Shown: in pieces, positions 12,364 through 17,694 of the stretch
Layout: the number at the start of each line of letters is the position of its first letter
How positions within the stretch are numbered: the first letter of the stretch is position 1
Notes under the pieces: generated by a model
Seen by the model: only the letters and a program-made list of their open reading frames with translations
Told to the model about the DNA's origin: nothing
Databases searched by the model: none
Origin: Escherichia coli
GTDB lineage: Bacteria > Pseudomonadota > Gammaproteobacteria > Enterobacterales > Enterobacteriaceae
Reading direction: 5' to 3' (one strand)
Length of the DNA stretch: 64,000 nucleotides
Assembly (NCBI RefSeq): GCF_016026235.1
Contig: NZ_CP065613.1
Made by a program: the position numbers and the translations under genes

Positions 12364-12858
12364 ATGAAGACACTAAAAGCAACTCCAGAAACAACTAATT
12401 TTATCAACTGCGGCTGTGTTACGCTTAAGGGCTTAGAACTTGATTCCTTTGCATTAAATATTGCAAATTTGCTAAGTGCTGTACGCACATTCCATCTTCT
12501 GGATTGTGCTCGCTCAAAGGAACTGGGCATTGAGGTAATGGAATTTATCCATGAATATGCTCTATCTGCGGCTTCTCCTGCACAACAAAAACAATCCTTC
12601 CCTGAAAGCTGGCTGGTTAACCTTCGCACCCAACGCGAAGCCTGCGGCTTAACAACCGCCGAACTCGCCAGGCTGCTCGATCTCGATGAAGAAATTATCA
12701 TCCAGTGGGAGAGCGGAGAGTATGAACCAACTATCAGTATGCTTATCCCACTGGCAAATATTCTTGGCTGCGATCCGATGTGGCTATTAACTGGTGAGGT
12801 TACTCCTCCGGAGCAACCAAAAAGTGAGGAGCAGCAACACCATGACGCATCTCAATAA
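12364..12858 (+). CDS. hypothetical protein with C-terminal XRE-type HTH domain
   Basis: 164 aa; C-terminal HTH (LTTAELARLLDLDEEIIIQWESGEYEPTISMLIPLANILG); first gene after the pL-like promoter. Confidence 0.6.
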   Translation: MKTLKATPETTNFINCGCVTLKGLELDSFALNIANLLSAVRTFHLLDCARSKELGIEVMEFIHEYALSAASPAQQKQSFPESWLVNLRTQREACGLTTAELARLLDLDEEIIIQWESGEYEPTISMLIPLANILGCDPMWLLTGEVTPPEQPKSEEQQHHDASQ

Positions 12859-13040
12859 GTTTGCCCCTTATCTCGCGAAGCTCTTCTACGGAAGAACCAA
12901 TACCAATGGTGACATAATCGCCGCTTCGCCCCTCAAGGTACATGCGAACATTTTTATCAATCATTGCGGAAACAGTCTCAATATGAAAACACTTCTGAGA
13001 CTCGCTATATAGCAGAACATATAAGTCAGCTGAGGAAGCC

Positions 13041-13406
13041 ATGAAAAAGTTCGAAAACATAACTGTTCTCCATGTTGATAACTTTGATTATACAAACCAG
13101 GAACTTCTCCCGGAGGTTGTAAAGGCAATAGATGTTGCCGATATAGTGATTAGAGGAAAGAGAATTGTCAAAAACAGGCTCGCATGTACTTCAGGAGCAA
13201 TGACAGAAACAACCTCACAGCAAGATGATTATGAAGGCATTTGTCTGGAGCCTGATTCATTTGCGGTAAATGTTTATCATTTATTGCATGCAACACAGGT
13301 GTTACATACGTCCAGTAATAACGAAACAAAAACACTTGGCAGTGAAATTCTGAATTTTGCATGTGAATATGCAAAAGCCGCTGTTGAAAAAGAATTAGCG
13401 CAATAA
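13041..13406 (+). CDS. hypothetical protein
   Basis: 121-aa ORF with SD GAGGAAG before ATG. Confidence 0.5.
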   Translation: MKKFENITVLHVDNFDYTNQELLPEVVKAIDVADIVIRGKRIVKNRLACTSGAMTETTSQQDDYEGICLEPDSFAVNVYHLLHATQVLHTSSNNETKTLGSEILNFACEYAKAAVEKELAQ

Positions 13407-13484
13407 CAACAAATATGCCATGAACGTTTATCACGGTTTTATCGCCGGGGATTATCACACCCTTAATCCACAGGAGGCTTTATT

Positions 13485-13598
13485 ATGACTTTTATAAAGA
13501 ATATGGCATCACACAAGACCGCCTGCCTTATTGCACAATACGGTGAAAATTACATGCATATTGCCTGCTTATTTCTGCGTAAAGCATACGGGAAATAA
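13485..13598 (+). CDS. hypothetical small protein (37 aa)
   Basis: Short ORF with strong SD CAGGAGG, ending 3 nt before the next gene; below ORF-track size cut-off. Confidence 0.3.
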   Translation: MTFIKNMASHKTACLIAQYGENYMHIACLFLRKAYGK

Positions 13599-13601
13599 CA
13601 A

Positions 13602-13961
13602 ATGACACATGAACCCATTAATACATATCGTCGCCGTATAGCTGTTGCGGCACTCCATCGAATAAAACGTAAAACAGGTGGTAATCTGCTTATTGTTGAC
13701 CTTCTGGATGGGAACATTACGACCATAGAAATAACTGAACAGTTTATAAACCAGTTGCTGTTACGCTTTGAAGGTATTACCCGTGGTGAATTGGGCCGAG
13801 TGGAGGGTGAAACCGAAATCCGCACTGCATACCAGAATGCTATCGGGATTAATCAACATACTGAATACCAGGCTGAAACCGGAAAGTTAATTATAGACAA
13901 CCTTTTACAAGAGGTTATTGATTACGCGAAAGAAAAATATATCAGCGGAGGAATTAACTGA
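13602..13961 (+). CDS. hypothetical protein
   Basis: 119-aa ORF, stop overlaps next start (ATGA). Confidence 0.45.
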   Translation: MTHEPINTYRRRIAVAALHRIKRKTGGNLLIVDLLDGNITTIEITEQFINQLLLRFEGITRGELGRVEGETEIRTAYQNAIGINQHTEYQAETGKLIIDNLLQEVIDYAKEKYISGGIN

Positions 13962-14176
13962 TGGCTAATTTATCCCCTGTATCTGTTGTGCACGAAAAAG
14001 TGCAGATCGTTATGACTATTGAAAATGGCCAGGTAACAGGTGTCTGCAAAGTCCGCGATGGAGAGCTGATTGCCAGCATGGATACATTCATATGGCTGGC
14101 AGAAAGAGCGGGGTATCAGATAACAGCACCTGCTCAGGAGGAAACCAGTGACATTAACAGCAACACGAATTCCTGA
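13961..14176 (+). CDS. hypothetical small acidic protein
   Basis: 71-aa ORF with SD GGAGGA, translationally coupled to upstream gene. Confidence 0.45.
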   Translation: MANLSPVSVVHEKVQIVMTIENGQVTGVCKVRDGELIASMDTFIWLAERAGYQITAPAQEETSDINSNTNS

Positions 14177-14366
14177 GTGGGTCCACCAGCAGGCGTTGCT
14201 GGTCCTGCGGCGGTACAGATGCCGATGTATATTCCCGCATCGGATACAGCGCAACGGATATCTCAGTCTGAAGGTTAACCGTCGCTGGCGGCTGTTATCG
14301 AAAGACGACGGCCGGAACTGGGAAGTAATGAGTCATGAACGTTATTCGGGGGAAATAAAGAAATGA
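14148..14366 (+). CDS. hypothetical small basic protein
   Basis: 72-aa ORF, GTG start with SD AGGAGG; Arg-rich. Confidence 0.4.
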   Translation: MTLTATRIPEWVHQQALLVLRRYRCRCIFPHRIQRNGYLSLKVNRRWRLLSKDDGRNWEVMSHERYSGEIKK

Positions 14367-15831: not shown

Positions 15832-15874
15832 TACATATGCCCGGTATTACACGCCGGGCTGTCTGGAGATAAAA

Positions 15875-16624
15875 ATGAATACTGTAACCATCAACAACAA
15901 ACAGTTTCCGGTAATCGAATATCGCGGTCAGCGCGTGGTGACGCTGGCGATGATTGATGAAGTGCACCAACGCCCGGACGGAACAGCGGGACGCAATTTC
16001 CGCGAAAACAAGTCTCGTCTTATTGAAGGGGAAGACTACTTCGAATTAGGTTCCGACGAAATTCGTCGACACCTCCCTGACGGTACTTTCTCAAAATTTG
16101 CAGCAGCAGGAATTGTACTGGTCGAATCCGGTTATTTGATGTTGGTGAAATCCTTCACCGACGATCTGGCCTGGCAGGTTCAGCGCGAACTGGTTAACAG
16201 CTATTTCCGAACTCACGCGCCGCTGACGGAAATGGAGATGATCGCTGCAATGGCCGCCGATGCCGTTCGCCAGCAAAAGCGCCTGAGTCATGTTGAAAAG
16301 AAGATCGAAACGGTCACCAAAGCTGTGGAGAACATCAAACGCGGCACAATGCGCGCCGGATATGTCGGTTACCGCCAGGTGGTAGCCAAAAGTGGAATGA
16401 GTGACGCCAAGTGTCGGAATCTGGTGAACGCATATCAAATTCCTACAGACACCCACGAATTCATGACTCCGGACGGTCTGTTGTCTCGCAGGGCTATCGT
16501 CGAGCTTGAGCCATTTATGGCGGCGTTCCACCAAATGATGTCAGAGGCTGAACCACGCGGCACACGCTGGTATCACCCGAAGATGGGGCTTTTCCAGGTG
16601 ATCGGATGGGAGGATAAAGCATGA
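15875..16624 (+). CDS. ORF6N/ORF6C-type antirepressor-like protein
   Basis: ATG at 15875 with SD GGAGA; C-terminal ~130 aa paralogous to the Rha-family gene at 9931-10644. Confidence 0.75.
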   Translation: MNTVTINNKQFPVIEYRGQRVVTLAMIDEVHQRPDGTAGRNFRENKSRLIEGEDYFELGSDEIRRHLPDGTFSKFAAAGIVLVESGYLMLVKSFTDDLAWQVQRELVNSYFRTHAPLTEMEMIAAMAADAVRQQKRLSHVEKKIETVTKAVENIKRGTMRAGYVGYRQVVAKSGMSDAKCRNLVNAYQIPTDTHEFMTPDGLLSRRAIVELEPFMAAFHQMMSEAEPRGTRWYHPKMGLFQVIGWEDKA

Positions 16625-17190
16625 TCATCCAGTCAAAACTTATTCGCGCCGCTCTGGTGTGCGCTGCTAAAAACGACGTTCGTTATTACCTGAACGGTCT
16701 TCACATCACGCCGAAACATATTGAGGCAACCAATGGTTCCGTGGCACTGCGCATGGCTCACGGCATCCGGACGAAGAAAAACATCATTGTCCAGTTCGAA
16801 GGGGGCGTCCCGGCCAAAGCCGAAACGACAGAGCTGATTTTTAGTAAAGAGCCGATCGCTGTTCATCGCGACCAGTTTCAGCGACGACTGTCCATTACCG
16901 GCATTAAACTGGTGGACGGTTGTTTTCCGGATTTGGATCGCATCATTCCGAAAAAGTTTGACCGCTGTACTCACCCGGTGCTCCAGGCGGGTTACCTGAG
17001 TTATCCAGAGAAGATGTTTGGTCGTGAGCGTAAATTTATTCCCGTCCAGTTACGTCCCTCCGGTGACGGGCAAGCGGTCAGAATTCAGTTTGATTCCATC
17101 ATCAACTCAATGTATGGCAATCCTGAATTTGTTGTGATGCCTTGTCGTGATCATGGCGATTTCAACGTGGCTCAGGAGCATCCGGAATGA
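16621..17190 (+). CDS. truncated DNA polymerase III beta sliding-clamp (DnaN) homolog, domain II plus shortened domain III
   Basis: 189 aa; DVRYYLNG, KLVDGCFPDLDRIIPK and C-terminal FVVMPCRD align with E. coli DnaN DVRYYLNG, KLVDGRFPDYRRVLPK and YVVMPMRL. Confidence 0.7.
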   Translation: MIIQSKLIRAALVCAAKNDVRYYLNGLHITPKHIEATNGSVALRMAHGIRTKKNIIVQFEGGVPAKAETTELIFSKEPIAVHRDQFQRRLSITGIKLVDGCFPDLDRIIPKKFDRCTHPVLQAGYLSYPEKMFGRERKFIPVQLRPSGDGQAVRIQFDSIINSMYGNPEFVVMPCRDHGDFNVAQEHPE

Positions 17191-17225
17191 AAATCGAATA
17201 CCAGGACGCCGCAGGAGGTGAATCA

Positions 17226-17309
17226 ATGAGCTGGCCTGATGCAATCGTAACTCTGGGGATGGTATTCGCAGTAGCGTTTGTTGTGTACTCGATTTGTCGA
17301 TGGGGATAA
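17226..17309 (+). CDS. small hydrophobic peptide (27 aa, single TM)
   Basis: MSWPDAIVTLGMVFAVAFVVYSICRWG preceded by strong SD AGGAGGTGA; below track cut-off. Confidence 0.35.
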   Translation: MSWPDAIVTLGMVFAVAFVVYSICRWG

Positions 17310-17313
17310 CCAC

Positions 17314-17556
17314 ATGTTCGCTTTGATTCAACGCGGGCAGATATACACAGACAGAGCCGGATACCCAGTAGAAATTACTCGCAGTACTGAGCACTCAGTG
17401 TTCTTTCGGAGGATGGACGGACGTACCGGGCGAGTACGCATCGGTGAATTCAGTAGCCTGTTCGAGCATATTGACCACCTGGAATATCACAAGATTCTGG
17501 CTGAAACAGAACAAGAAAAGCACCTGAAGAAATTACGCGCAATGCAAAGGAAGTAA
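17314..17556 (+). CDS. hypothetical protein
   Basis: 80-aa ORF from ATG 17314 (track ORF starts at upstream alternative start 17278). Confidence 0.4.
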   Translation: MFALIQRGQIYTDRAGYPVEITRSTEHSVFFRRMDGRTGRVRIGEFSSLFEHIDHLEYHKILAETEQEKHLKKLRAMQRK

Positions 17557-17559
17557 AAA

Positions 17560-17694
17560 ATGAATAAAGCGTTTGAGCTATGGGTCCACCAGCGTTACGG
17601 CAACCGCTACGACCTGACGCGAGATGTTGACGGTTTCTACTGTCGTGAAATTGTGAAACGAATGTTTGAGGTCTGGTGCCACTGCCGTGGATGA
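17560..17694 (+). CDS. hypothetical small Cys-containing protein (44 aa)
   Basis: ATG with SD AAGGAAG; below track cut-off. Confidence 0.3.
   Translation: MNKAFELWVHQRYGNRYDLTRDVDGFYCREIVKRMFEVWCHCRG

Follow-up and report, generated by a model that had tools for sequence, protein, structure and literature searches.

In a 64,000-nucleotide (nt) stretch of Escherichia coli DNA (assembly GCF_016026235.1, contig NZ_CP065613.1; the whole stretch is called the window here), a lambdoid prophage carries 13 open reading frames (ORFs), named A to M in this work, between its cI-type repressor gene and its xis and int genes, at positions 12364 to 17694. We conclude with good confidence that this region is the early-left (PL) operon of a prophage at mlrA that has no recombination (Rec) module and is rich in Chi sites, and that in its operon it is kin to phiP27, Fraca, phi467 and Stx1a phages. 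Upon loss of the repressor, PL would transcribe the whole operon with no N-type antiterminator. Recombination-dependent concatemers and protection from RecBCD would then be provided by host RecBCD-RecA, switched on by the Chi sites of the phage, and not by Red and Gam, while the ORFs would be interchangeable early-gene cassettes. Judged from its sequence, the prophage is another example of the published no-Rec-module, high-Chi class of lambdoid phages, with a different early-left gene set.

Absence of a recombination module

The ORFs of the operon are, in order:

12364-12858, plus strand: A, 164 amino acids (aa), helix-turn-helix (HTH) protein; Pfam HTH_3 (6e-10, residues 87-141) and phrog_4836 'CII-like regulator' (2e-78)
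13041-13406, plus strand: B, 121 aa, uncharacterized family; phrog_5451 (8e-81, full length) and phrog_4587
13602-13961, plus strand: C, 119 aa, conserved enterobacterial prophage protein; phrog_1737 (4e-51)
13961-14176, plus strand: D, 71 aa, acidic (isoelectric point, pI, 4.4); phrog_340 (6e-26); overlaps E by 29 nt
14148-14366, plus strand: E, 72 aa, basic (pI 10.9); Pfam ParE_like PF24732 (1.8e-15) and phrog_1525; 'ParE family toxin-like protein' in RefSeq
14363-14755, plus strand: F, 130 aa, arginine-rich (pI 11.0)
14816-15004, plus strand: G, 62 aa, two transmembrane (TM) helices; phrog_1130 'membrane protein' (2e-23); its stop overlaps the start of H
15001-15831, plus strand: H, 276 aa, SPFH/Band_7 lipoprotein; Pfam Band_7 (8e-30) and phrog_200 (1e-114)
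15875-16624, plus strand: I, 249 aa, ORF6N domain and anti-repressor-type C-terminal domain; Pfam ORF6N (4e-14) and phrog_1726 (5e-67)
16621-17190, plus strand: J, 189 aa, 1.5-domain protein like the beta sliding clamp; ATGA overlap with I
17187-17309, plus strand: K, 40 aa, acidic N-terminus and one TM helix; no PHROG match, annotated in RefSeq
17314-17556, plus strand: L, 80 aa, DUF4222 (Pfam, 1e-13); phrog_285
17560-17694, plus strand: M, 44 aa, conserved, adjoining xis; phrog_3871 (3e-33)

These 13 ORFs, together with ten further ORFs on both strands, were searched against the profiles of PHROGs, NCBIfam, Pfam and PADLOC. None of the four collections gave a family match to Exo, Bet/RecT/Erf/Sak, Gam/Abc2, SSB, Kil, CIII, Ral or N, and Ea10 was matched neither by profiles nor by tblastn. 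When 21 proteins of the lambda PL region were compared by tblastn with the six frames of the 64 kb window, only Int fell below E = 0.05; the best matches of Exo, Bet, Gam, Kil, CIII and N had E values of 0.09 or worse and lay elsewhere. The same search revealed no exo, bet or gam fragments or pseudogene remnants in any frame of the window. The claim made earlier from the letters alone, that no obvious exo/bet/gam, kil, cIII or N homologues lie between cI and xis/int, is thus borne out by profiles and by six-frame tblastn, and none of the sensitive homology searches identified any ORF as an analogue of Bet, Exo, Gam or N.

The lambda Red/Gam module, with a YqaJ-type Exo, a Red-beta/RecT-type Bet and Gam in mid-operon, has no counterpart here, as the early-left operon holds no recognized strand-annealing protein, exonuclease, SSB or RecBCD inhibitor. 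Furthermore, the nin region of the annotated relatives (the locus of E. coli VL46 and a relative from O121) consists only of a hypothetical gene, ninH and Q, and contains no NinB, NinG or RusA.

The kinds of protein that the original prediction had placed in the operon were largely recovered: the HTH protein is A (Pfam HTH_3), the small basic or arginine-rich proteins are E and F with the pI values given above, the membrane/SPFH pair is G with its two TM segments and H with a Band_7 domain behind a lipoprotein signal, and the clamp homologue is J, by sequence, profile (hhalign) and fold. For the ORF6N/ORF6C antirepressor-like protein, I, the ORF6N part was found by Pfam and the C-terminal half matches anti-repressor PHROGs, whereas ORF6C itself was undetected by Pfam.

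Chi sites and membership of the Rec-less class

Among 314 enterobacterial lambdoid phages, Zheng, Casjens, Davidson, Amundsen and Smith (Genome Res 2025; PMC12315714) counted 68 (22%) without a recognizable Rec module, and 62 of these 68 have at least 8 Chi in the active and at most 6 in the inactive orientation, preferentially near the right DNA end (PMC12315714). The type phage of this class, LLS, grows better with RecBCD and is without N (PMC12315714), and no gene of unknown function is universal in the early-left operons of these phages (PMC12315714). Bobay et al. (2013; PMC3784561) had reached the same Rec/Chi dichotomy from prophages.

In positions 1-20600 of the window there are 10 Chi octamers, 8 in the presumed active orientation against 2:

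1933, 3923, 4810, 5460, 7571, 8224, 14183 and 17586, minus strand: Chi, presumed active orientation, GCTGGTGG on the minus strand, which reads CCACCAGC on the plus strand
8324 and 8815, plus strand: Chi, other orientation
14183-14190 and 17586-17593, minus strand: the two of these octamers that lie inside the operon

The number expected on the enriched strand ranges from 0.4 to 2.0 depending on Markov order (order 3: 1.45, P about 1e-4). The minus strand holds cro, Q and the replication and lysis genes, so that the enriched orientation corresponds to the top strand of the lambda map; by analogy with lambda, GCTGGTGG would stand on the lambda-convention top strand and be active against RecBCD coming from the right cos end (PMC12315714). 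The counts lie within the published bounds of at least 8 active and at most 6 inactive Chi, and Chi sites gather towards the right DNA end, as the 45.5 kb prophage reconstructed from VL46 shows: it has 9 Chi on the top strand and 1 on the bottom strand, and all 9 active sites fall at fractional positions 0.55-0.94, that is, in the right 45%, with 6 at or beyond 0.80 and none in the head-tail half. The isolated phage Fraca has 13 top-strand Chi and 1 bottom-strand Chi, and the phi467, Stx1a phage and AF14 loci show the same orientation bias. Lambda, on the contrary, has no Chi (its PL region count is 0), whereas the prophage studied here is Chi-rich.

The prophage therefore resembles the LLS-type phages in its lambdoid gene order, in the absence of annealing protein, exonuclease, SSB and anti-RecBCD genes from its early-left operon and of recombination genes from its nin region, in having no N, and in having at least 8 active and few inactive Chi towards the right end. 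It differs from LLS and ST64B, which carry yfbR/yfdQ/yfdP-type genes, in that HTH, ParE-like, SPFH, ORF6N and mini-clamp genes occupy the operon. Moreover, unlike the LLS-type phages, the copy studied is a prophage disrupted by an insertion sequence (IS), and a dependence of its growth on RecBCD would follow by analogy.

Control region and early antitermination

The operon is preceded by a compact control region:

12230-12246, plus strand: intrinsic terminator 3' of the cI-type repressor gene, a 7-bp GC-rich stem followed by TTTTTTT
12270-12333, plus strand: OL/PL control region
12282-12310, plus strand: PL-like promoter, TTGACA-17-TAATAT, the best sigma-70 match of the region (10/12)
12270-12286 and 12317-12333: operator-like palindromes, ATCAA-N-TTGA(T), flanking the PL-like promoter

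The operator-like sites recur in the cI-cro intergenic region at 11424-11499 (repeat family D4; inverted repeats I1/I4/I10), and the repressor would be expected to bind at the palindromes. Downstream, the earlier count of about 13 tightly coupled ORFs was right as to their number and coordinates and, from C to M, as to their packing (spacings of -29 to +60 nt, with four 4-nt ATGA-type overlaps); A and B, however, are separated by 182 nt and B and C by 195 nt. A promoter scan found no good internal promoter in the operon, and a terminator scan of the plus strand found no convincing intrinsic terminator inside it, the terminator-like matches at 14208, 16117 and 16895 being weak, within coding sequence and without T-rich tails. 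Because of this lack of internal terminators, transcription from PL would need no N-type antiterminator.

No N homologue was obtained with lambda N by tblastn or among the N families of PHROGs, and the position of N, the first gene after PL, is held by the HTH_3 protein A. The boxA-like pattern YGCTCTTWA matches the window just once, at 20107 within int, and not near PL; no systematic search was made for boxB hairpins. The gaps A-B and B-C were considered as places for a put-like or other structured RNA and rejected, since their predicted folding is not better than that of shuffled sequence (z -1.6 and -0.4), and Rfam has no match within 12-18 kb. Published Rec-less, high-Chi lambdoid phages also tend to lack N (PMC12315714).

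The lambda PL operon reads N-ral-ea10-cIII-kil-gam-bet-exo-ea genes-xis-int. The operon described here agrees with it in position and orientation relative to cI and int, in the terminator that follows the repressor transcript ahead of an operator-flanked PL, and in its closely packed small genes with xis and int last. It departs from lambda in that only Int is homologous, an HTH protein and not N comes first, and PL has no boxA-like site nearby.

Several points weigh against our interpretation. A very divergent small analogue of Gam, Abc2 or Kil is conceivable, and B, C, D, K, L, M and the minus-strand gene described below may be read in this light, having been judged by profiles only. The independence from N would rest on a simple terminator scan, and Rho-dependent terminators or put-like RNAs are possible. 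As for Chi, the 8:2 orientation bias is by itself not significant with 10 sites (binomial P = 0.11), although the density is; the active orientation is also the leading-strand orientation of the chromosome, and the chromosomal part of the window has 10 against 6. Cryptic or decayed prophages bearing IS elements could gather Chi passively, as the chromosome does (PMC12315714), and by that comparison the IS-bearing prophage studied here could have done so too. The Chi counts of Fraca argue against a purely passive origin.

Genes A and B and a gene on the opposite strand

The HTH of A is of the C2-repressor type: among Protein Data Bank (PDB) sequences it matched the HTH of the P22 C2 repressor (3.5e-5). 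An A-like HTH gene is the first after the repressor in phiP27, AF14, phi467, the Stx1a and Stx2a phages and a Providencia prophage. B is 95% identical to L08 of phiP27. Residues 24-72 of A (12433-12579) are paralogous to the C-terminal 65 aa of B (13209-13403), with 43% identity (tblastn, and cross-matches of phrog_4587 and phrog_5451), and B might pair with A or titrate it.

Around these genes lie two further reading frames:

12800-13060, minus strand: conserved gene of 80-86 aa; phrog_6104 (E 2.8e-49)
13485-13598, plus strand: candidate 37-aa ORF in the B-C gap, with a perfect AGGAGG Shine-Dalgarno sequence, no PHROG match and uncertain gene status

The minus-strand gene lies between A and B and overlaps the 3' end of A by 59 nt. 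It was overlooked in the original prediction, whose set of 13 plus-strand ORFs was otherwise correct. Upstream of it are an extended -10 sequence, TGTATAAT, and a GGAG Shine-Dalgarno sequence. The gene is unannotated in the identical RefSeq locus of VL46; at the corresponding place phiP27 carries L09, also an ORF on the minus strand. These signals may allow expression in the lysogen independently of PL, or transcription of the gene may interfere with that from PL.

Gene I and the mini beta clamp J

We regard J as the most interesting part of the operon. In a phmmer search of PDB it matched residues 136-256 of DnaN, and hhalign equated residues 5-150 of J with DnaN 136-289 (probability 98.6%). 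Its AlphaFold2 model has a mean local confidence (pLDDT) of 91.6, and in Foldseek all 48 of the 48 PDB matches at E <= 0.001 were beta clamps. As read from these alignments, J comprises domain II of DnaN, the interdomain linker, roughly half of domain III and the final strand.

Residues R21, L24, T37, G39, H40, P103 and R107 of J, which are invariant or nearly so in its family, correspond to DnaN R152, L155, T172, G174, H175, P242 and R246; in the copy studied the H40 position (DnaN H175) is Ser. The motifs DVRYYLNG, TxGH and GxFPDxxRVxP are kept. The C-terminus of J, FVVMPCR, presumably matches that of DnaN, YVVMPMRL (common pattern VVMPxR), the two having been aligned by eye. On this assumed correspondence, M173, P174 and R176 of J, again invariant or nearly so in the family, would be DnaN M362, P363 and R365, and V171 would be DnaN V360 in the copy studied.

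The subsite-II residues N320, Y323 and V344 of DnaN fall in the part that is missing from J. The residues named above include most of the peptide-binding subsite I, and under these alignments the J family keeps 8 of the 12 subsite-I residues listed in PMC11139829. J thus shares with DnaN the clamp fold and conserved residues of the peptide-binding cleft, and differs from it in size and architecture: DnaN has 366 aa in three domains of about 120 aa and forms a head-to-tail dimer ring, whereas J has 189 aa, no domain I and only about half of domain III. Because these parts are missing, J should be unable to form the DnaN dimer ring as such; a ring is conceivable since four copies would supply twelve beta-alpha-beta motifs.

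Members of the family, 176-192 aa long, occur in Escherichia, Salmonella, Klebsiella, Serratia, Providencia and Photorhabdus and in unrelated phage contigs. In BFVD, many phage proteins of 180-210 aa match the J fold over their full length (TM up to 0.81), among them short clamp-like proteins of Pantoea phages PSKM and LIET2, Serratia phage Rovert and Burkholderia phage AH2, and several carry the annotation "DNA polymerase III beta subunit". Databases thus already contain the family, and a literature search on truncated prophage clamps gave nothing specific and no functional study. A RusA-like Holliday junction resolvase, the label of phrog_3007, was considered for J and rejected, given that there is no RusA match in Pfam and that sequence, profile and fold all point to a beta clamp.

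A more speculative proposal, to which we give a small though real chance, is that J and its phage kin of 180-210 aa are not processivity rings but soluble or alternatively oligomerized mini-clamps with subsite I, which would dock onto clamp-binding motifs in host proteins, for example Pol III alpha/delta, Hda, Pol II/IV/V or MutS/L. If this were so, J could divert or silence host replication and repair early in induction, and in a Rec-less, Chi-dependent phage it might bias events at replication forks and DNA ends.

The neighbouring gene I shares a domain with the opposite arm of the prophage. Its C-terminal domain (16229-16612, plus strand) and the Rha-family gene (9937-10320, minus strand) form a 385-nt inverted repeat of 70% identity (68-78% at the protein level). 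Since the C-terminal domains of I and of the Rha-family protein are homologous, the same domain appears fused to two different DNA-binding heads.

The C-D-E-F block and the possibility of hidden recombination functions

C has no named homologue, and its family profile has no relative in PDB. For F, the model predicts a confidently folded beta-sheet and helix that has no fold relative in PDB. F was rejected as an N analogue or DNA-transaction protein: it is not the first gene, its model is folded and does not resemble a disordered arginine-rich-motif protein, and PDB offers no relative. E has the ParE-family toxin domain of type II ParDE systems and lacks, in contrast to them, a cognate and co-inherited antitoxin directly upstream. 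D belongs to no antitoxin family of PHROGs, NCBIfam or Pfam, and a toxin-antitoxin pairing of D with E was discarded because the two do not co-occur: Fraca has E without D, and phiP27 and the Stx phages have D-like genes without E. It is possible, going by its domain, that E acts as an early toxin directed at the host.

These genes bear on an alternative in which Rec and anti-RecBCD functions are hidden in unrecognizably divergent proteins, with C-D-E-F occupying the position of the Rec module and J acting as a DNA-transaction factor. C, D and F have no assigned function, the block is a conserved and syntenic one in mid-operon, F is very basic with its confident fold and no solved relative, and J is kin to a hub protein of DNA replication and repair, all of which would suit such a role. 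Abundant and correctly oriented Chi, however, argue that RecBCD is used and not inhibited (PMC12315714). In addition, C-D-E-F is not universal in the group, as phiP27 and the Stx1a phages are without C, E and F and phi467 is without F and J, and the candidate proteins are all shorter than known annealing proteins and exonucleases, and no profile or fold match came out. Consequently, we hold hidden Rec functions to be very unlikely.

The G/H pair and the question of a defence island

The lipoprotein signal of H ends in LVG-C21 and is followed by Asp, and a coiled-coil region follows Band_7; with this signal H would be retained at the inner membrane, with its SPFH domain in the periplasm. The closest solved sequence is E. 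coli HflK (5e-4). H scores 25.5 and 22.8 bits against the HflK/HflC equivalogs, far under the cut-offs of 134 and 159. Like HflK and HflC, it has a Band_7 domain and a predicted inner-membrane anchor with a periplasmic domain; unlike them, it is anchored by a lipoprotein signal and not by an N-terminal TM helix, and its partner G is not of the NfeD or HflC type, having no NfeD, Band_7 or HflC similarity in PHROGs or Pfam. H and G may act on the FtsH-HflKC system and so replace CIII. A literature search on phage SPFH lipoproteins gave nothing specific.

G-H is the most mobile piece of the operon, being found also in phiP27, in the P2-like phage P88 and on plasmids of about 95-99 kb. Because H occurs on these plasmids and in P88, it must move between unrelated temperate elements. 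On plasmid NZ_CP077493.1 (79842-80669), a close H homologue lies among tRNA genes near a Tad2 anti-Thoeris gene, which is one example, and close homologues occur at about 240 other plasmid places.

One could accordingly ask whether the operon is mainly an island of defence or exclusion genes (morons), with E as an abortive-infection toxin and G/H excluding superinfecting phages from the prophage state. The ParE-like domain of E, the portability of G/H across lambdoid and P2-like phages and plasmids together with its single occurrence near an anti-defence gene, and the promoter-like signal of the minus-strand gene at 12800-13060 would all fit. PADLOC-DB 2.0, on the contrary, returned no defence system, its only matches being generic HTH ones for A and a weak one for C (E 0.0016); the genes stand behind a repressor-controlled promoter with no good promoter of their own inside the operon; and D and E do not strictly co-occur as a toxin-antitoxin pair would. 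A defence island is therefore unlikely, in our judgement, and we retain the interpretation of a PL operon made of early-gene cassettes.

Mosaicism and relatives

Five cassettes were defined by tblastn of each operon protein against the fetched relatives:

Cassette 1: the A-like HTH gene, always first after the repressor and often with B
Cassette 2: C-D-E-F, complete in AF14, as C, E and F in Fraca, and as C, D and E in phi467
Cassette 3: G-H, the most mobile
Cassette 4: I (in AF14, Fraca and phi467) together with J
Cassette 5: K-L-M beside xis, nearly universal in the group

phiP27, an Stx2e phage (genes L02-L10), has B, G, H, L and M as well as A-like and D-like genes; with Fraca the operon has C, E, F, G, H and I in common, and with phi467 it has A, C, D, E, I, K, L and M. 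The gene order is the same throughout the phiP27, Fraca, phi467 and Stx1a relatives. In AF14, phi467 and an Stx1a phage, K is likewise conserved ahead of the DUF4222 gene, and the M proteins of phiP27, phi467 and an Stx1a phage are 80-98% identical to the one here. Of the relatives examined, AF14 alone has J, the phiP27, Fraca, phi467, Stx1a and Stx2a loci having none; in a Providencia prophage, a J homologue stands downstream of an ORF6N gene, one gene away. In other prophages, Ea22-like and DUF551 genes lie between J and L.

Of 5426 complete E. coli genomes, only 6 contain the region with at least 80% coverage, while 1217 (about 22%) contain parts of it; for the C-J block the figures are 50 genomes with at least 80% and 580 with parts. 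The full gene set is thus limited to a few E. coli prophages, and at the DNA level none of the phages among the matches listed covers over 39% of the region. The contrast between 6 near-complete and 1217 partial occurrences, the different gene subsets shared by the relatives and the five cassettes agree with the mosaic accessory region that had been proposed. To call its content cargo is an overstatement: several families have no assigned function, but most of the ORFs belong to conserved early-gene families of PHROGs, which hold the same place in the operons of functional phages (such as Fraca, phi467, phiP27 and Stx1a phages).

Prophage setting and integrity

Positions 1-20.6 kb of the window are the right-hand part of a lambdoid prophage at mlrA (yehV), followed by the yehW-osmF region of the chromosome. 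On the minus strand come terminase-proximal genes, lysis genes, four tRNAs, Q, ninH, a DnaB-type helicase, a DnaC-type loader, an initiator, Rha/BRO/ash-type regulators and a cro-like gene; on the plus strand come the cI-type repressor, the 13-ORF operon, xis and int. The lambdoid organization of repressor and cro, early-left operon leading to xis-int, replication genes, Q, lysis genes and terminase is thus present, as read from the ORFs of the window and from the RefSeq annotation of the VL46 locus and the O121 relative. Features outside the operon are as follows:

3567-3874, minus strand: four tRNA genes between Q and the holin gene (Ile, Arg, Thr and Gly in the annotated relative)
8815-8902, minus strand: C4 antisense RNA (Rfam, 80 bits, above the gathering score)
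8927-9003, minus strand: isrK RNA (Rfam, 62 bits, above the gathering score)
11129-11395, minus strand: cro-like gene
11523-12218, plus strand: cI-type repressor with XRE HTH and S24-type domain
17713-17862, plus strand: xis, broken after codon 49, by alignment to the intact 84-codon xisR of VL46
17861-19108, minus strand: IS3-family IS600-like element in xis with a 3-bp GTA target duplication (breakpoints by blastn against the relative locus, and flanks)
19253-20539, plus strand: tyrosine integrase gene int, adjoining the mlrA attachment site

The C4 and isrK matches lie in the early-right arm, just downstream of a BRO-N/anti-repressor-type gene at 9054-10076, an arrangement which suggests, by analogy, an anti-repressor or ash-type module under antisense-RNA control like that of P1/P7.

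The operon is 100% identical to that of prophages in E. coli VL46, CFSAN029787, VL40 and RMDEC364. The left 12 kb of the window, in turn, have no full match among the 5426 complete genomes (best coverage 80%). At its tail-fibre end (NZ_CM177010.1, 1741746-1745267), the VL46 prophage carries the type III secretion effector gene ipaH and a dinI-like gene, and because this relative carries ipaH, the prophage probably stems from a Shigella or enteroinvasive E. coli lineage. At its far end the VL46 prophage borders on yecD/aspS in place of the second half of mlrA, pointing to a chromosomal rearrangement between prophages in that strain.

The ORFs of the IS600-like element are at 17868-18707 and 18734-19072, and IS600 is annotated in the relatives. 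As the element cuts xis, normal excision is unlikely, and the insertion probably locks the prophage in place. This damage might be taken to mean that a Rec module was lost by decay and that the operon is a remnant, remodelled by deletions and IS elements, whose gene content says nothing about strategy; the IS911 and IS600 copies in related prophages and the rearranged VL46 end at yecD/aspS point in the same direction. Nevertheless, the same Rec-less operon type, in the same order, is found in the isolated or inducible phages Fraca, phi467, phiP27 and Stx1a, all 13 ORFs are intact and identical to the copies in other strains, and no frame holds exo, bet or gam remnants. Decay as the explanation of the missing module is thus extremely improbable, and the prophage is better understood as a member of the Rec-less, high-Chi class.

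Implications

The class to which the prophage is assigned was described in 2013 and 2025, and what is new here is the combination of known, mostly uncharacterized phage families. No new principle emerges from the region as it stands, and the finding, though real, is for the most part ordinary. The absence of Red, Gam and N would accordingly be a recognized phage strategy, in which host RecBCD is used together with the phage's own Chi sites, and not an annotation gap. Finally, the region provides a compact list of conserved, uncharacterized early genes, of which J and the SPFH pair are the most tractable.

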